DNA of 64,000 bases, taken from contig OX597814.1 in assembly GCA_951406725.2 (NCBI GenBank), forward strand, positions 145,576,001 to 145,640,000, given 5' to 3'. Position 1 is the stretch's first letter. Every line of letters begins with the position of its first letter. Made by a program: the position numbers and the translations under genes. This document shows positions 3,246-47,819 of the stretch, piece after piece. The DNA comes from Octopus vulgaris. Lineage: Eukaryota. The notes below the pieces were generated by a model. The model saw nothing but the letters and a program-made list of their open reading frames with translations. It was not told where the DNA came from and did not search any database.

Positions 3246-3460
3246 CAGTAATCCCTCGCCTTATCGCGGTTTACCTATCGCGGTTTATTATTTAAGCTGA
3301 CCTCGATTTCTCTGTGGTATTGTTTTACATTTATAATAAAATATATACAAATTATAAAAATAATTTAAAAAAATTACATTACAGTACTGTTTGTACTTCG
3401 CGGATTTTCACCTATTGCGGGTGGTTTTGGAATGGAACAGCCGCGATTGTCGAGGGATAC
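3246..3460. mobile_element. pogo/Tigger-like MITE
   Basis: Starts TA|CAGTAATCCCTCGCCTTATCGCGG; the right end CCGCGATTGTCGAGGGATAC is its imperfect reverse complement; ~215 bp with no coding capacity. Confidence 0.6.
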
Positions 3461-3496
3461 CTATCTATCTATCTATACATCCATATCTATCTATCT

Positions 3497-5208
3497 GTAC
3501 ATCCAGTGATGTCAACCCCCAACACACTATATCGGACATAACGTTTAGTGCCCCTGATGTCTTAGCGGCGATAAACGAAATAAAACACAATTCAGCAGTA
3601 GGCCCCGATAGGTTCCCTGCTTGTGTCCTGAAGGTGTGTCGACACCAACTTGCATCTCCCCTTGCTAATCTGTGGAGAAACTCACTGGATGCTGGCTATA
3701 TTCCAAAACACCTTCTGTCTCAGTCTGTTGTCCCAGTTTTCAAAAAGGGAAACAAGTCCCTTGCAGTGAATTACCGTCCGATCTCACTCACCTCTCATAT
3801 CATCAAGGTATTTGAGAGGGTGGTGAGATCTCGAATAACCCAATTTCTGGAAAGCAACAGACGGCTGATCTCCAACCAACATGGGTTCCGTAATGGAAGG
3901 GACTGCCTAACGCAGCTCCTGCATCACTTTGAGGACATTTTGAGAGCTTTGGGAGAGGGCTCCAACACCGATGTCATCTACCTTGATTTCAGTAAGGCCT
4001 TCGACAGGGTCGATCACAAGATCCTATTGAAAAAACTATCCAACATTGGTGTCTCTGGAAAGTTACTGAAATGGATCAAGTGTTTCCTGACAGACAGATC
4101 TCAACATGTTGTAGTTGAAGGGGTAAAATCAAGCCCAGCCAAACTCAGTAGTGGCGTTCCGCAAGGCACTGTGCTGGGCCCACTTCTTTTCATCATTTAC
4201 ATTAATGACATTAATAACATCATCAAGCACAGCAACATAAAAATCTTTGCAGATGACTCCAAGCTACAGAAGGTCATAAATGAGGCGAGTGACCGGACAT
4301 GCCTTCAGTCAGATCTACTGGCTGTTATCCAATGGGCAGAAAAAAACAATATGCTGCTGAACGAGGATAAATTTGAGCTAATCCACTTTGGAAAAGAGGA
4401 TGCCCTGAAACTCCCATACTCCCTTCCTTCAGGTGAAACTCTCGCGGCGTCCAACAACATCAGAGACTTGGGAGTAATTGTGGACAACAACATAAGCTGG
4501 GCCACTCATATAAACACCAAAGTTGACATGGCCCGCATAATGTGTTCGTGGATTCTCAGAACTTTCCAGTCGAGAGATATCCACACCATTATCCTTCTCT
4601 TCTCCACTTTTGCCCGACCCCATCTTGAATACTGTTGTCCACTGTGGTCTCCCCACACAATACAAGGTATCATAAAAGTTGAAGCACCTCAAAGGGCAAT
4701 CACAAAAAAGATAGATGGCATGACAGGCCTCGACTATTGCGGTCGACTAGAAAAGCTAAAACTCTATTCTCTCCAACGTCGTCGTGAGCGCTACATCATC
4801 TGCATGATGTGGAAAATATTTCATCAGCATTGCCCAAATGATGTTGGCATCACCTTTAAGGTACATCCAAGGCTTGGGCCCCGTGCCATCCGCCCAAAAC
4901 AAAAATCGCACTCTCATCTCATAACAACAATACGGCACAATTATTTCACCTCAATTGGCCCCGCTCTCTTTAACATTGCACCAAAACACATTAAAACAGA
5001 AACTGACCCTATAGGGTTCAAGAAGTCTTTGGACAGATTCCTTCAAGAAATCCCGGATAAACCCCCTACACCCGGATATGTCTCTGTAAACAATAACTCT
5101 CTACTTGAGTGGGCCATAGTGCCCAAATTCTGACTTGAAAGACTTCACCAGGTGGTGCTATTAAGTTAGACATGGCCTGGGCCAATAATGGCCGAAACCT
5201 ATCAAAGT
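3497..5208 (+). mobile_element. 5'-truncated CR1/L2-group non-LTR retrotransposon, young copy
   Basis: Open RT frame, a ~75-nt 3' UTR with a stem-loop and an AAGTAAGTA end; no endonuclease domain present. Confidence 0.92.
3499..5133 (+). CDS. LINE ORF2 reverse transcriptase domain plus C-terminus, 5'-partial; the ORF-track start at 3391 is spurious
   Basis: Motifs NYRPISLTS, QHGFR, YLDFSKAFDRVDH, SGVPQGTVLGPLLF, FADD, RDLGV, LEYC..LWSP; no stop over ~545 codons. Confidence 0.9.
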   Translation, partial: TSSDVNPQHTISDITFSAPDVLAAINEIKHNSAVGPDRFPACVLKVCRHQLASPLANLWRNSLDAGYIPKHLLSQSVVPVFKKGNKSLAVNYRPISLTSHIIKVFERVVRSRITQFLESNRRLISNQHGFRNGRDCLTQLLHHFEDILRALGEGSNTDVIYLDFSKAFDRVDHKILLKKLSNIGVSGKLLKWIKCFLTDRSQHVVVEGVKSSPAKLSSGVPQGTVLGPLLFIIYINDINNIIKHSNIKIFADDSKLQKVINEASDRTCLQSDLLAVIQWAEKNNMLLNEDKFELIHFGKEDALKLPYSLPSGETLAASNNIRDLGVIVDNNISWATHINTKVDMARIMCSWILRTFQSRDIHTIILLFSTFARPHLEYCCPLWSPHTIQGIIKVEAPQRAITKKIDGMTGLDYCGRLEKLKLYSLQRRRERYIICMMWKIFHQHCPNDVGITFKVHPRLGPRAIRPKQKSHSHLITTIRHNYFTSIGPALFNIAPKHIKTETDPIGFKKSLDRFLQEIPDKPPTPGYVSVNNNSLLEWAIVPKF

Positions 5209-5307: not shown

Positions 5308-6476
5308 TCGTTTACTGGACAGATGCTGGAGTACCTTCTTTCAGTGTTTTGATGTCTCATTTTGGTACCGTTTTTGGACAACTGAGTTGGATGAAGCTGC
5401 TTTTCTTTGTACCTCCTGCTGGGATGCAGTCTTATCTGGGATTTCTGACAGAAATTTCTCATGGTGCTTTTGAATGTTCCCAGATCTACAACTTGCAGAT
5501 CTGTTAGGTCCCGTGGAAGGATGTTAAACTGGTGTGATACCCAGAACCCTGAGCTAATGCAATACTGGATCCTTATCTGAAAGGAAGAAGACGGTATCTT
5601 TCATATTACGCAGTGCTGTCCAGTTCGATGGCTTGTATAGGTTTCAGTTCTAAAGTTGTGAGCCAGACTTTCCAGGGTCTTCCATATGTATGTCACAGCA
5701 TAATTTTCTCGTCTTCTCTCCACGGAGTAGAGCTTCATTTCTTGTAACCTCACCTATTTGTTCATTTGTTTCACCAAGTCAATCTTCTTTGTGTAATGCC
5801 GCTGGATTGCCTCAAGTTTCGTATCAAAATTTGACATTCTGCTGCGGGAGCAGTAATCCAGTCGACTGAGGACAAATGTGCTCCTTAAGAGTAGCAAGGT
5901 ATCCTTACTTCTGGCTCTGAATGACATAAGGATCCATCAAGCTACTCGCCTTCATAGTCTTGCCATCCTGGCAATACACACATGAATAGTTGCATCACTA
6001 CTTATGTAGATTCCCAGGTCACGCATCGTGTTTAACTCTGGGATTGCACTGCCCCCTGATCCTATGTATTCAGATTGTAGTCTGTGGGTCGATAGCGGAG
6101 TGCTTTGAAACTGATCAGCATTGAACTGCATGTTATTTTCATCGGTTCATTCGTATATTGCATGCAAGTCGTTTTGCAGTTTTACTATACCATCAAGCTT
6201 TTTGACTGCCTGAGATATGTATCATTAGCATAACTGGTGAGTGATTGCCTGTATAACTGAGGGCAATGTCTGAGAGAGCCACAACAAACAGTAGTGGTCC
6301 CAGTACAGTTCCCTGAGGAACTCCGCTGCAACTGCCGGACTTCTGTCTATGAAAAAGTCGTGCGGCTACTCTCAGTTTTCCAGTGATAGCCAGATTATGT
6401 AGTTTGTGACATCATCAATGATCAACTTTATCAAGGGCTTTGGCAAGTCGAGATATATGACATGCACATTTGAGTG

Positions 6477-6544: not shown

Positions 6545-6690
6545 AGCGCGATATGGTCAAAATAAACACCGCAGTGTATATTGTGACGAATTATATAAAA
6601 TTATTACCTTTGTATGGTATTTATTCCCATGCTGGCCACTTGATAATATCGATATTTAAATATCGATATTATCCTTATTTATAAATTTGT
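6545..6690 (+). mobile_element. Fragment of the 52.7-kb HHR element family, with a 5'-inverted piece
   Basis: ATTCCCATGCTGGCCACTTGATAA...TTATCCTTA matches 52902-52963; 6547-6576 resembles the reverse complement of ~52999-53028. Confidence 0.6.
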
Positions 6691-6695
6691 ATATA

Positions 6696-6726
<31 letters not shown>

Positions 6727-6919
6727 CAACAAATGAGGGTAAAATTAATTAATTAATCAATTTCACCAAGTGTTCAGTATGTAAAAGGACCATTTAAGGC
6801 GAATTCAAAATATTACATTATATAATTAGGGCTTAGTAAAATAAATTACTTTGCCACATACTGAACTTAGTAGAAATAGCAGCCAAAAAAATTTTCTTAG
6901 CATTTCTACTACTAGAAAT

Positions 6920-6982
6920 TTTGAGCTGACGAAAGAAATGCGGATTTTATTTGGCTAATCTTGAAACGTTGACGTACTCAAA
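6920..6982 (+). ncRNA. Type I hammerhead ribozyme
   Basis: tttgag-CTGACGA-aaga...tctt-GAAA-cgttgacg-TA-ctcaaa; stem I is 6 bp; predicted cut after 6976. Confidence 0.8.
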
Positions 6983-7481
6983 CGATCTATGTATTGTGAT
7001 ACGTTTCTGTATTTACCTCCAAACCTTCGTGAGCTGTCTGGAGTAAACATTATCTGAGAGAAATTTTCTTTAAGTAGTAGAAATGCTAAGAAAATTTTTT
7101 TGGCTGCTATTTCTACTAAGTTCAGTATGTGGCAAAGTAATTTATTTTACTAAGCCCTAATTATATAATGTAATATTTTGAATTCGCCTTAAATGGTCCT
7201 TTTACATACTGAACACTTGGTGAAATTGATTAATTAATTAATTTTACCCTCAATTGTTGATATTATAATTCATTTCTCTCGGTCATACTGCCTCGGTTCT
7301 CGCGGTTAAAATATAATGTTTGCTAGATAGACCACGTGGGTGGAATGAGGAGTGCAGAAATTTACGCCTGCGCATTTTGAATTTGTTGACACTGTTAGTT
7401 GGAGTGGTTCATCTGAAGCGACAAGTTCGCTGATAGGTAATGTTCCTTCGTTTTAGTGTTTCCAAATCCAAATTAAGAAAT

Positions 7482-7544
7482 TTTGAGCTGACGAAAGAAA
7501 TGCTGATTTTATTTGGCTAATCTCGAAACGTTGAAGTACTCAAA
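7482..7544 (+). ncRNA. Type I hammerhead ribozyme, second copy with a weaker stem III
   Basis: tttgag-CTGACGA-aaga...tctc-GAAA-cgttgaag-TA-ctcaaa; predicted cut after 7538. Confidence 0.7.
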
Positions 7545-7733
7545 CGATCTATGTACTTGTGATATGTTTCTGTATTTACCTCCAAACCTTCGTGAGCTGT
7601 CTGGAGTAAGCATTATCTGAGAGAAATTTTCTTTAAGTAGTAGAAATGCTAAGAAAATTTTTTTGGCTGCTATTTCTACTAAGTTCAGTATGTGGCAAAG
7701 TAATTTATTTTACTAAGCCCTAATTATATAATG

Positions 7734-7788
<55 letters not shown>

Positions 7789-8339
7789 AGCAAGGAAAAA
7801 TTGTAAAAATGCAGAATGCTCAAATGAAAGAAAATTTTATTGAAATGAGAAATTGATAAAATATATAAATATATATTTATTTATTCAAACCGGTCCACCA
7901 TTTATTGATATATATATATATATATATAGATATAGATATACCTGCTGCTTGGACGTATTTTTTTTATTTTGTCTCTCCCCCCACAGATACATATATAGTA
8001 TTTTTGAACTATTCTGCGCATTTTCTGTGTAGGTTATTTAATACGATTATTTTTTACACAATGCTATAGAAGGAAATCCCTGCTCAGGATTTCACGAGGG
8101 GTAATCGAACCTGGAAGCACATGTAAACAATGCGACATGCCCTTAGTTGTATAGGCAGCCATTTCCACCAGTTATGTTAAAACAAACGTATCTCAGGCTG
8201 TGAAAGACCCTGGTAACATAGTAAAACAGCAAAATGACTTGCATGCAATATACAAATGAACCACACACATTGACAAGAGCTTATATAAACTTCTCCCTTT
8301 CGAAACCCATCTTTCTCATATAACTGTAGAACTAGAAAT

Positions 8340-8630
8340 ATAGTCTACAGCATAAGTTGCATAGAGTGTGCTTGTAAAGACAAGAACATGATATATATAG
8401 GTGAGACATCTAGAAGCATTGCAGAGAGACGAGATGACCATTTGAAACAATATGACGACAAAAAAAACCAGTCCTCCATACTCTTCCAACATGCCGATGA
8501 CCAACATGGAGGCACCCTGGATAAACTTGACATCCGCATTTTATCCAAGCACCCGAAAGATCCAACACTCAGACAAATTCAGGAGTACCTCCTCATAAAT
8601 GAAACATCCCTAAATAGGAAATATACGTAG
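8340..8630 (+). pseudogene. GIY-YIG endonuclease fragment of a Penelope-like element
   Basis: IYIGETSRSIAERRDDH...FQHADDQH...RQIQEYLLI...LN; preceded by a short CR1 RT scrap at ~8190-8265. Confidence 0.75.
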
Positions 8631-8721: not shown

Positions 8722-11060
8722 TCGTGAAAATTTACAGAAATCAAAAGACGAAGATGGGTGTGTAAACAACAAACAGATGTATTAGTTTAACGCTCGGGAA
8801 GTGACAAAGACTTTTACGTTTCGAGCCTGCGCTCTTCGACAGAAAGGAACACAGAAATAAACAGGGAGAGAAAATACAAAAAAGGCTTAGTGGCTAGAGA
8901 TCTATCATGGCGAATGCCGGACAGAGAGGTCACACATGAGAGCTGAGAAGAAGGGGAGATAATAAAGTAGTGGTGATGCCAAAACGAAGGTGCGCGTGAG
9001 TGTGCATGTGAGAGTGTGTATGTGTGTGTGGGAGGAGGCAGGTGACATTGACGCATGCATGTGTGCATGTGTTAGTGTGTGGAAAATGGTGTAGGTGCTG
9101 GGAAGTGGTCAGTGCTAATGTGTGCGGAGTGGTGTGATGTGGTGTGGTATGGTGGTATGTGGTATGTGGTGGTGTGTGGTGTGGTGCTGTTGGGGGTGTG
9201 GGGGAGACGAGAGTGGTGGAAGCAAGCGTGGGGTCTAAGGGATGGGGGTGGGATGGGAAGTATAGGGATGGTGGGGTTGAAATGTGTAGGTTGGGGTAAC
9301 GAGGGATGGGAAAATGAAGCGAGAGGGTGGAAGGCAGAAGGTGGGTAGGACTGAAAAGAGGAAGTAAGTGCCAGAGCAAGAGAGGAGAGGTGGTGGGAAG
9401 AAGTAGGTGTGAAAGGAAGAGATGAGGACGGTTAGATGAAGAGGGGAGGCGAGTTGAGCCCATTGGCGCAAACGAGCGAAGAGAGAAGATTAATCACTGC
9501 TCACGGCAAACACGGGAGTCCGGTTGCCCCCTGTGCAAGGACAACCCGAACACAGACAAGTGTTGTAAAGAGCGACCGGTAGAGAGGGAATGACGTGAGA
9601 GCGGGGTATCGTTGTCGAGTTTGATGTCTCGGATTTGTTCGCGAACCGGTCAGCCAAACAGCGTCCCGTTTGACCGATGTATAGAGGAAAGGAAGAGCAG
9701 GAGATGCAGTAGACGACGTTGCTAGAAGTGCAGGTGAATGGTGGATGATGTGTGCCTGTGAGGAGGGCAGATGATGAGTGCCTGTGAGGAGCGTGGATGA
9801 TGGGTGCCTGTTGGAGAGGTAAGGGCAGCAGCGTGGGTGGGAGCAAGGGAACGAGCCGGGTTAGGAGGTAGTGCTAGGAAATAAGCTGTGGACCTAGAGG
9901 TCTCGTAGGTTGTGGACTCGTTTGAAGGAGGGGAGGGGTCGGTTAGGGAAGATGTGCGAAGTGGAGCGGTCGCATTGGAGTCTCGCAGGAAGGCTCGGAG
10001 AATGGTGCGTTGAAGAGGTAAGTTGGTAGGGTGGTAGGTGAGGGGAAACGGGAGACGGGTGACGGCGGGGCGGGTGCGGGGAGAGAGAGAGAGCAAATGC
10101 ACGGTCCACTGAAGTGCTCTGGTAAGGATGGTGGGGATAGTGGTGAGGGGATATCCACGACAGATGAAGTGGTGAGCCATGAGCTGAGAGTGAGTCTCAG
10201 TCATGGTTGTCACTGCAGAGCCTGCGTAGTCGGAGGAATTAGGAGTAGGGAATGGAGAGGTTGGTGTGTTTAAGGTGGGAAGAGGAGGAGTTGAGTTATG
10301 AGTATTTTTAGTGGATGGAGGTGGTGAGAGTGGAGGGGTGAATGCTGACCGAATTATCGAGAAAGGCGATTGAGGTGTCGGAAATAGTGAAGGAAAAGTT
10401 AAATGCAGGATGGAAAAAATTGACAAAAGAGAAGAAAGAGTCTAGATGTTCACGAGAGAGTGAGGTCGCACTGATACAGTCATCAATATAACGACCGTAT
10501 ATTTCAGGAGCGGAACTTGTGAAACTTGAGAATATTTGGGCCTCAACGTAGCCAACGAAATGGTTCGCATAGTTGGGATCCATTCTCGTTACCATGGCCC
10601 CTCCCAAGACATGCCGGTAAAAATCACCAGCGAACGAGATGCGGTTCAGGGAGAGGACAAGTTCGCACCACAGCACCACGACTGCTCCCTTGTCGGCCGG
10701 TTTTATAATGATGTCCGTGTGGCGCGGAGATATCGAATGGCTGAGAGTTCGTCTGGGGAGATACTCAGATGTCGGGGCCGCATGGAAAATTCAAACCGAT
10801 CCACAGCACGCTGGCAGGCGCCCGCAAAAAGATCGACTGTTTGGAACTGGCCAGGAGCTGGCGTCCATTAGGATGGTCGGCGGCCCAGGTCGGGAAAGCA
10901 GTCCTCCTTATTAGATGCAGGGGGAGTGTCGCAAAATAGTGCACACAACCTAACGCGGCGCACGAAGCTGTGCATATCGGCACTAGTTGAAAATTCGTTG
11001 CTGGTTGGCGTGAGGGGGATGAAGCGCAGACCCCTACAGTGGAGGGAGCGCTCCGCCATC
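8722..11060 (-). mobile_element. Decayed, internally deleted Penelope-like retrotransposon (Neptune-like)
   Basis: N-terminal ERSLHCRGLRFIP...FVRRVRL (10868-11059); RT GGAMVTRMDPNYAN...RYIDDC (10308-10679); GIY-YIG CTSSNVVYCISC..LYIGQTGR (9490-9740); low-complexity spacer; pLTR 8722-8905. Confidence 0.88.
8811..8846 (-). ncRNA. Minimal hammerhead-like motif in the PLE pseudo-LTR (non-canonical core)
   Basis: cttt-CTGTCGA-a-gagc-gcag-gctc-GAAA-cg-TA-aaag; A6 is replaced by T. Confidence 0.55.
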
Positions 11061-11901
11061 TATATACATAAATATATGTGTGTGTAGGTAAATGCCTATG
11101 TACGTAAACAGACAGATAAACACACACACACACACACACATGCAAACACACAAACAGGAATATGCAGAATGCATACGTAGAAACGTACACACATGTATGC
11201 ATATATATGTATACACATACATGCATACGCACATAGATAATATATGCATGCATACATACAAGTGTGAAAACACATGTACACTGACACACACACTCACACA
11301 TGCGCACAAACAAACAAAGAAAAAGACCAGCGTCAACAGCCATTGAAAGGTTGCAAGACGCAATGAAAATTTTAGAAAAAATAAATAGGTAAACGAGTGG
11401 AAATCGAACCGGTGAATGTGTTACATAATAAGGCACTAAAAGAGAATGACTCTCTCTCCAGACACAATAGTATACTACATACATATATATATTCATACAT
11501 ATATATATATATTTGCATTTGGGTATGATTAGTATAATTTTGGTAGTAATGACTTTGTCCCTCTTAGTGTGAGGCATTTATGTGTAATAATGCCCTCTAT
11601 ACAATATAGATATAATTAATTTGTTCAAAAGAAAAAAATTATTTTCGGATTCTTTTCTTTTATGAGGTTTTCACGCTAGCTACCCGATAATTTCTTGTTA
11701 AGATCCCTTATTAAGAGATTATCCTTAATTGTTAAACTTATTCCGAAATACTTTTCATTACCCGACATGCAGTTCGTAAAAAGCCCGCCATTTACCGGAT
11801 ATATGATTTATAAACATTCCATGTGCTTGGCCGGAGTGAGCAGTTGTCTGTTCGTCTTCGCTACGTAAGGTTGGTAGTTTATTTATGATGTGTTCAGAAT
11901 C

Positions 11902-11959
11902 AGTTCTGCTGACGATCATTAGACGTAAGTTGAATGTGAAATCACGGTGATACAGAACT
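11902..11959 (+). ncRNA. Type I hammerhead ribozyme
   Basis: agttctg-CTGACGA-tcatt-a-gac-GTAA-gtt-g-aatgt-GAAA-tcacggtga-TA-cagaact; stem I is 7 bp; predicted cut after 11952. Confidence 0.88.
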
Positions 11960-12381
11960 AAATTCATTTTTTAAATGTCTTGCTTTGAAAAACTGCATTT
12001 GGGTATGATTAGTATAATTTTGGTAGTAATGACTTTGTCCCTCCTAGTGTGAGGCATTTATGTGTAATAATGCCCTCTATACAATATAGATATAATTAAT
12101 TTATTCAAAAGAAAAAAATTATTTTCGGATTCTTTTCTTTTATGAGGTTTTCACGCTAGCTACCCGATAATTTCTTGTTAAGATCCCTTATTAAGAGATT
12201 ATCCTTAATTGTTAAACTTATTCCGAAATACTTTTCATTACCCGACATGCAGTTCGTAAAAAGCCCGCCATTTACCGGATATATGATTTATAAACATTCC
12301 ATGTGCTTGGCCGGAGTGAGCAGTTGTCTGTTCGTCTTCGCTACGTAAGGTTGGTAGTTTATTTATGATGTGTTCAGAATC

Positions 12382-12439
12382 AGTTCTGCTGACGATCATT
12401 AGACGTAAGTTGAATGTGAAATCACGGTGATACAGAACT
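12382..12439 (+). ncRNA. Type I hammerhead ribozyme, identical second copy
   Basis: Same sequence 480 nt downstream; predicted cut after 12432. Confidence 0.88.
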
Positions 12440-12563
12440 AAATTCATTTTTTAAATGTCTTGCTTTGAAAAACTGCATTTGGGTATGATTAGTATAATTT
12501 TGGTAGTAATGACTTTGTCCCTCCTAGTGTGAGGCATTTATGTGTAATAATGCCCTCTATACA

Positions 12564-12606
<43 letters not shown>

Positions 12607-45797: not shown

Positions 45798-45844
<47 letters not shown>

Positions 45845-45952
45845 TCGGGGTGAGTTACTTGATAATTATAAGCACCTGTGTATACCGTTTGGTGGTGTAG
45901 GTGGTGGAGTAAATTGATCAAAATAAAATAAAAACATGATGCGAAGGATTCA

Positions 45953-46030
45953 GCGGTACATATGTTTCGGGCCTTTATTAGACAGATTTATAACAATGCA
46001 TAATGTATGTCTGTGGCCTTCTTCAGCCGC
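45953..46030 (-). ncRNA. Type I hammerhead ribozyme
   Basis: Reverse complement of 47593-47670. Confidence 0.8.
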
Positions 46031-47592
46031 GCACAACAGCTTCCACAAGGACATGTGTTACATCAAAAATTCTTGGTTGGGGATGCAAATCCTCTCATTC
46101 GCGTACGACATAATGCGGCAGCAGCATAGAATTGAAGCGTCCATCTCTTTCTTCTCTCAATGTAGAATGAGGAAAATTGGATGTTGAAGTAATGTAAATA
46201 AATAAATACATATATAGACGTGAAGATGGAGGGGCGAGAATTCAGGACGAGGGATAAAAAATGTATAAAAAGTGTAAGTATAGAAAAATATAAAGATGTA
46301 GAGCATAAAGATATAAAGAGGTATAAGGAGATGTAAAGGGGGTATAAAGAATATAAAGAAATATAAAGAAATATAAATAAATGTAAAGGCATAAGGTTAT
46401 AAAGTAAAAATAGAAATAGAAATAAAAGTAAAAAAACATGATAAAAACATGATAAAAATGTAAAAAAATGTAAAGATAAGGGATGTATAGAGGTTACGGA
46501 CCAAGCATGGTGGTCAGGAGATTGATAAAATTTAGTTGTAGAATTGTCAGTAAATCAACTGTTTCGTCTGGGGACCTAATGTGTTGTAAATCAGAGCTGA
46601 TGAGCGTTTAATCTGGTTCCTTGTATATGTGCACGCACATACGGACACACAGCCGTGTGTGCGTGCACGTATAGACATGAGTACGTGATTCTTTACATAC
46701 ATTCTTTTATACATCCTTTAATATCTTATATCTAGACCTAGAAGCGTGGGCATATGCGTGTGTGTATGTAGGGATGGGCGCGCGTATGTACATGTGAGTG
46801 TGTACACGTATAGTGTCCGTGTATACATGCGGATATTCTGTTGTATGTATGTATGTGTACGTGCGTGCGTGTGGGTGTGTGTGTGTTTATGTACATGTTT
46901 ACACGCGAGTGCGTGTGTATGCTTATAGGCTTGGAGGCGTATATGTACGCGCGTATATGGGTGTATGTATCCATGATGATATGAATGTACTAGAAGTCCA
47001 TTTAATTCAAGGAACCAGATTAAACGCTCTGATTTACAACACATTAGGTCCCCAGACGAAACTGTTGATTTACTGACAATTCTACAACTAAATTTTATCA
47101 ATCTCCTGACCACCATGCTTGGTCCGTAACCTCTATACATCCCTTATCTTTACATTTTTTTACATTTTTATCATGTTTTTATCATGTTTTTTTACTTTTA
47201 TTTCTATTTCTATTTTTACTTTATAACCTTATGCCTTTACATTTATTTATATTTCTTTATATTTCTTTATATTCTTTATACCCCCTTTACATCTCCTTAT
47301 ACCTCTTTATATCTTTATGCTCTACATCTTTATATTTTTCTATACTTACACATTTTATACATTTTTTATCCCTCGTCCTGAATTCTCGCCCCTCCATCTT
47401 CACGTCTATATATGTATTTATTTATTTACATTACTTCAACATCCAATTTTCCTCATTCTACATTGAGAGAAGAAAGAGATGGACGCTTCAATTCTATGCT
47501 GCTGCCGCATTATGTCGTACGCGAATGAGAGGATTTGCATCTCCAACCAAGAATTTTTGATGTAACACATGTCCTTGTGGAAGTTGTTGTGC

Positions 47593-47670
47593 GCGGCTGA
47601 AGAAGGCCACAGACATACATTATGCATTGTTATAAATCTGTCTAATAAAGGCCCGAAACATATGTACCGC
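47593..47670 (+). ncRNA. Type I hammerhead ribozyme
   Basis: gcgg-CTGAAGA-a-ggcc-acaga...tctgt...ggcc-c-GAAA-catatg-TA-ccgc; palindromic stem III; predicted cut after 47666. Confidence 0.8.
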
Positions 47671-47705
47671 TGAATCATTCGCATCATGTTTTTATTTTAT
47701 TTTAT

Positions 47706-47819
<114 letters not shown>

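Follow-up and report, generated by a model that had tools for sequence, protein, structure and literature searches.

The locus occupies 6690-7788 of the 64,000-nt stretch of Octopus vulgaris DNA analysed here (the window) and consists of a tandemly repeated 562-nt unit preceded by a shorter inverted copy of part of itself (Table 1). Unit positions are numbered q1-q562 from 6914 to 7475, with the predicted ribozyme cut after q63. A direct repeat (6914-7176 versus 7476-7739) has a spacing of 562/563, the inverted arms (6723-6913 versus 7073-7263) are 99% identical across 191 nt, and (TA)n tracts are read on either side at 6690-6726 and 7725-7788. All three features had been described in a reading made from the sequence alone. 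That reading also remarked that the direct repeat starts about 6 nt before stem I of the first ribozyme; it does, but the coincidence is incidental, as 5' ends are spread round the unit across loci. A target-site duplication, which in non-LTR retrozymes exceeds 4 bp when present, is illegible inside (TA)n flanks.

Table 1. Features of the retrozyme locus and of a second retrozyme in the window
Feature	Position	Strand	Remarks
Left target remnant	6690..6726	.	(TA)n
Arm B, inverted	6723..6913	-	Unit positions ~160-350; outer end 6723 at fixed site B
Arm A	6914..7739	+	1.47 units: q1-562 followed by q1-263; fixed site A at its outer end
Hammerhead 1, type I	6920..6982	+	Predicted cut after 6976
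562-nt monomer	6977..7538	+	Bounded by the predicted cuts
Conserved structured module	7069..7267	+	Contains sites A (q~254-270) and B (q~350-354)
Hammerhead 2	7482..7544	+	Private changes at 7524 and 7535
Right target remnant	7740..7788	.	(TA)n
Second retrozyme	11514-12574		480-nt unit x2.2; hammerheads at 11909 and 12389

Each hammerhead of the locus is of type I, with a CTGACGA core (at 6926 and 7488), a stem I of 6 bp and a predicted cut, after 6976 and 7538, respectively. The type I descriptor gave six matches in the 64-kb window, every one of them inside one of three repeat elements; none of 30 block-shuffled windows gave a match. The core of the first hammerhead is that of the family majority and is near-invariant across 55 young loci. 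In the second, a pair is lost from the base of stem II through T>C at 7524 and another from stem III through C>A at 7535; each change is a single-locus allele (1/55 young loci). Both cores are thus present, as the sequence-only reading had it, but the one at 7488 does not belong to a fully canonical hammerhead. Likewise, the cuts proposed to release a 562-nt monomer fall where that reading put them, but because of these two private, helix-breaking changes the second ribozyme is degenerate and this particular copy may fail to release the monomer. Stem III is very short and self-complementary, with a 10-bp self-duplex of -10.8 kcal/mol, and is predicted to favour dimers; hammerheads with a very short stem III are reported to cleave as dimers (PMC7229834). 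Rfam did not find the hammerhead at the gathering score or at E<=10, and its weak MIR4208 match (48 of 140 bits) reflects the long hairpin. When folded alone as a single strand the ribozymes do no better than shuffles (z -0.09 and -0.46), so folding gives no support for the ribozyme.

The unit is non-coding, as had been claimed: read as a circle, it holds no stop-free frame longer than 63 aa. The 562-nt monomer folds far better than its shuffles (z -6.6, 0/100 as stable). A 20-nt ribozyme word has 567 exact matches genome-wide against 0 for its reversed control, a result that bears on the genomic copy number the earlier reading had called for; the copies, in the hundreds, are dispersed. A search of the genome (2.8 Gb) gave 1,617 candidates, 40 of them scored; top-scoring copies are 94-98% identical, and full-length matches 95-98%. 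Identity falls to about 75% in older subfamilies, and arrays of 562-nt period reach about 3.6 units. The family is recently active. With a hammerhead in every tandem unit, short dispersed tandems, no coding capacity and a monomer predicted to be highly self-paired, the locus is very probably a non-LTR retrozyme and adds a member to an established class.

The ends of the insertions were compared in 87 loci of the 562-nt family. Sixty of these were picked by pattern from the first 100 matches listed for contigs C1 and C2, without the last six of C2 and five other loci, and 27 are the top-scoring set (30 minus 3 duplicates), which is biased to long copies; L027 and L052 resemble one duplicated insertion and both are counted. 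Nearly all outer ends (131/142) fall at one of two places about 91 nt apart, named site A (q250-272) and site B (q335-356). TA-rich DNA adjoins 115 of these 131 ends. Junctions at site B are nearly uniform. The 5' ends, in contrast to these fixed ends, are distributed round the unit in the 87 loci; the earlier reading had proposed to look for a permutation of start points. They are not enriched at the ribozyme cut (3/131 versus 2.1 expected); L025, L057 and L242 start at the cut or a few bases off.

The two sites are used as a pair. Head-to-head loci number 55; one end is off-site in 11 of them, and in the other 44 each end lies at A or B. Of these 44 classifiable loci, 43 combine A with B and the remaining one is B+B (L047); A+A does not occur (binomial p 2.6e-12 against 50:50); the pattern-picked subset gives 32 of 33. 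The window locus has B at its left end and A at its right. Single-arm loci divide into 17 ending at A and 15 ending at B, with a short B arm hidden in four of the 32. Arm lengths show no positive correlation. The earlier reading had likened the inverted arm to the inverted 5' pLTR of PLEs. Both outer ends of such loci, however, have the character of 3' (priming) ends. The arm is therefore more aptly regarded as the second of two insertion ends, and we infer that the outer end of arm B marks a second priming event.

The 480-nt family, represented in the window by the second retrozyme, shows the same rule. Its copies are 98-100% identical genome-wide, form arrays of up to 12 units and have ends 127 nt apart. 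Among its 29 top-scoring loci 19 are inverted, comprising 15 A+B, 0 homotypic and 4 with an off-site end. A further head-to-head element lies in (TA)n at 45840-47710, with 717-nt inverted arms (98%) and a long-stem-II hammerhead in each (47597 on the plus strand, 46026 on the minus strand). Its left arm is about 70 nt longer than its right, which makes it another tail-at-one-end insertion. The long (TA)n flanks and near-perfect inverted repeat of the window locus could also be produced at the DNA level, as a satellite or hairpin made by local recombination or by an assembly error; this is hardly credible for hundreds of dispersed copies that have fixed 3' ends and variable 5' ends and follow a rule that recurs in a second family.

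Six of the eight ATAT/TATA words of the unit are at A or B, which suggests that short pairing with a (TA)n primer probably fixes the exact base of the junction. Microhomology does not choose the site by itself: ends are rare at the ATAT/TATA patch of q398, and in the 480-nt family the GATATAT patch near q285 has none. Both sites lie within the conserved module, where each is preceded by a hairpin and a CCCT word. The module is common to related families at 68-77% identity. The region q153-350 recurs in two further hammerhead families, one with 77% identity over q153-251 and the other, also with a 562-nt unit, with 68% overall and ends at the same two places. An alignment of 18 module sequences has 41 predicted pairs, five of them with two-sided changes across families; as the aligned sequences are related, this covariation is only suggestive backing for the structure. 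More hammerhead families with the priming module, or like the 480-nt family, are found at 68-86% identity (L158-L182, L203-L222, L273, L288 and L292). The copies of the related 562-nt family at L218 and L221 sit in (TATC)n-type repeats and end a few bases beyond along site A.

The arms also bear on the template. Most of them (111/131; 75/93 in the pattern-picked set) cross the ribozyme cut and about half (64/131; 30/93) are longer than 562 nt, in support of the earlier suggestion that copying goes beyond one unit. On a cleaved linear monomer, an arm begun at A could reach no more than about 200 nt, and one begun at B about 290 nt. In 55 young loci, the rate of minor-allele sharing is 3.9/kb between opposite arms, where the null is 0.72 and rises to 1.41 at most in 300 draws, and 8.2/kb between passes within an arm, where the null is 1.40; local gene conversion or assembly homogenisation could inflate such similarities within a locus. 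Within-arm differences are distinct in 119 of 128 cases. The 480-nt family agrees on allele sharing (4.4 versus 0.42 and 6.0 versus 0.62). One of its loci, L255, carries the same six non-majority alleles through 11 full and two partial passes and in the opposite arm too; L258 is an exception, its two arms differing at a site shared within one arm.

As each site occurs once in a monomeric circle, two primers acting on it simultaneously would be forced to use A and B, respectively. A dimer acting on a linear multimer could yield A+B pairing equally. Two-strand priming on an uncleaved linear multimer, transcribed from a young homogeneous array, with a dispensable ribozyme and with A+B dictated by the geometry of the protein dimer, is an unlikely but serious alternative. 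It agrees with the failure of 5' ends to pile up at the cut, with the anole PLE, whose insertion is unaffected by hammerhead mutants and whose main substrate is unprocessed RNA (PMC11167929), and with the cleavage in vitro of just 1/9 Xenopus dimers (10.64898/2026.07.22.740005). However, 5' truncation would shorten arrays in each generation, yet the longest arms reach 2,026 nt in the 562-nt family and 5.9 kb in the 480-nt family. Within-arm differences seldom recur between loci, and stem I pairing is maintained across families of differing sequence; both points tell against the linear multimer.

Alleles common to both arms would be accounted for directly if priming occurred once and the cDNA folded back to copy itself, the second outer end being set by endonuclease resolution at the other site. 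The window locus is among the 25 of 41 A+B pairs in which one arm is nested in the other, as fold-back needs; nesting is found in 12/13 pairs of the 480-nt family, in which 4/13 joints are near-palindromic, and palindromic joints occur at L061, L080 and L264. In the remaining 16 of the 41 pairs each arm has sequence missing from the other, and for these fold-back is excluded. Furthermore, 5' ends no more than 25 nt apart are not enriched in the 562-nt family (4 versus 3.7 expected), and the longer arm can start at either site. As a general explanation fold-back is therefore improbable. The 55 head-to-head joints comprise 32 with overlaps, 6 that are blunt and 17 with gaps, as judged from BLAST ends.

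Two alternative 3' ends (the tail), 5' truncation, head-to-head inversion and a microsatellite target are the features of PLE-mobilised insertions, and the 562-nt population has them all. It thus supports, at the level of genomic sequence, PLE-type mobilisation. An ORF with RT and GIY-YIG between pLTRs, as in an autonomous EN+ PLE, is not found at the locus. PLE protein matches, to several families and in both orientations, occur in 14 of the 195 loci examined (some overlapping), and none continues the 562-nt unit. No PLE with the module was found among the approximately five families inspected: an old Neptune-like family and a young Poseidon-like family (provisional labels based on motifs rather than on a tree) have no copy of it, nor do a young two-ORF family and its relative. 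BLAST gave no match between the ends of the unit and the pLTRs inspected. The sole likeness among the pLTRs inspected is a 9-nt word, TTTTACCCT, that precedes the short end of the older relative of the two-ORF PLE.

Canonical PLEs have a single ORF. The two-ORF PLE (L186:1868-5568, also L183-L199) is young, intact and high-copy, with overlapping frames of 479 aa (no Pfam family above cut-off) and 781 aa (RT and GIY-YIG, RT-EN); it targets (TA)n, its tail measures about 35 nt, and no canonical hammerhead was found in it. L224/L225, considered as pLTRs flanking an ORF, proved to be two instances, 5.4 kb apart, of a duplicated palindromic composite made up of two small A+B insertions. In the window, an old PLE family has left a GIY-YIG remnant at 8289-8627, and 8134-8262, just upstream of it, has a 79% inverted copy across the retrozyme, at 6144-6270. 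A broken Poseidon-like PLE lies at 9637-11056 (-) and a LINE-type RT frame of 589 aa (PF00078) at 3364-5133 (+).

It is very improbable that a coding PLE, represented only by truncated 3' fragments, supplied the unit as its pLTR and 5' end. The PLE-like ends, tails and inversions of the unit, the GIY-YIG remnant at 8289-8627 and the homology of Xenopus retrozymes to pLTRs (10.64898/2026.07.22.740005) would all suit such an origin. Against it are the head-to-tail units without an ORF, the lack, in the 195 loci, of any PLE match that continues the unit, and the remnant itself, which belongs to an older family with different ends and whose closest other copies share about 80% aa identity with it. 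The non-autonomous, PLE-style element of the sequence-only reading is upheld by the copy number, the absent ORF and the lack of a recurring fusion to a PLE ORF.

We consider it rather probable that the element relies on a borrowed Penelope-like enzyme, for which the two target strands both serve as primers, each at its own fixed site on a single RNA that is probably a circle. A multi-unit locus would be transcribed, self-cleaved and ligated to a 562-nt circle, as the motif and other animal retrozymes suggest. A PLE RT/GIY-YIG dimer, bound to the two hairpin-CCCT modules, would nick both strands of (TA)n, and one strand would prime at A and the other at B, with 3-7 nt of TA microhomology, giving the ends observed. 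Each polymerase would run a variable distance, often over the ribozyme junction and past one unit, as the arms show, and the two cDNA ends would be joined head-to-head, often at the short overlaps seen at the junctions. Extension of one strand alone would give a single-arm copy. The anole PLE provides a precedent in that it nicks and extends both strands and has two internal start sites and a predicted dimer; it speaks against the model that its start site does not differ between strands and that it shows no homology to the target. Its ribozyme is dispensable in vitro (PMC11167929). Circles of retrozymes, with PLEs as candidate mobilisers, are described in PMC7229834, and a relationship of retrozymes to pLTRs in 10.64898/2026.07.22.740005. 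For EN+ PLEs, an inverted pLTR and a tail often at one end have been explained by self-priming or endonuclease-resolution models (PMC3846280, PMC8557442).

A broader proposal, whose chances seem a little short of even, is that twin priming at two sites is obligate in retrozymes and PLEs alike: a PLE dimer would act at two structurally homologous sites on one ribozyme-made circle, with both polymerases rolling, and a clan of at least four families would keep the double module while swapping the rest. If true, one step would account for the PLE tail, the inverted pLTR, partial tandems and second-strand synthesis. The A+B rule bears on the origin of the inverted and tailed insertions of Penelope; the available literature treats both their formation and the copying of retrozymes into DNA as open questions. 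The counted footprints of the family (A+B pairing, shared haplotypes, non-nested arms and arms that read through the cut), together with its candidate cis-module of 200 nt, make the two questions amenable to a defined test in vitro. A small RNA directing two-strand insertion into microsatellites would interest retrotransposon-based gene writing.

Retrozymes as a class are established. The literature searched, which did not extend to older subscription-only Penelope reviews, showed neither the paired-end rule nor any count of paired ends, and no application of twin priming to retrozymes. In L1 twin priming, both target strands prime on one RNA to give a 5' inversion joined at microhomology, the second primer acting at variable internal sites and the arms not overlapping. 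In the octopus retrozymes, by contrast, the two sites have fixed positions and the overlap between the arms is extensive.

Metazoan non-LTR retrozymes, as described in the available text of PMC7229834 and 10.64898/2026.07.22.740005, resemble the present family in their non-coding tandem units with one type I hammerhead each, low GC, highly self-paired monomer, dimer-favouring short stem III, co-occurrence with PLEs and proposed tandem cDNA from a circle. The 562-nt unit exceeds the 170-400 nt of Cervera and de la Pena 2020 (PMC7229834) and is within the 51-972 bp of Li et al. 2026 (10.64898/2026.07.22.740005). Mobilisation by PLEs is proposed there from co-occurrence and pLTR homology; the available text describes no fixed priming sites, head-to-head insertions or paired ends, and 'inverted' occurs 0 times in that of PMC7229834. 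With EN+ PLEs, as far as the available accounts go (PMC11167929, PMC3846280, PMC8557442), the family shares two alternative 3' ends, 5' truncation, partial tandems, head-to-head inversions, microsatellite targets and a tail often at a single end. It differs from them in having no ORF, in junctions on TA microhomology and in a tail of 91 nt (127 in the 480-nt family) rather than 30-40. The one-end tail of EN+ PLEs is a qualitative remark in those accounts, whereas the octopus retrozymes provide counts of it and often have non-nested arms.
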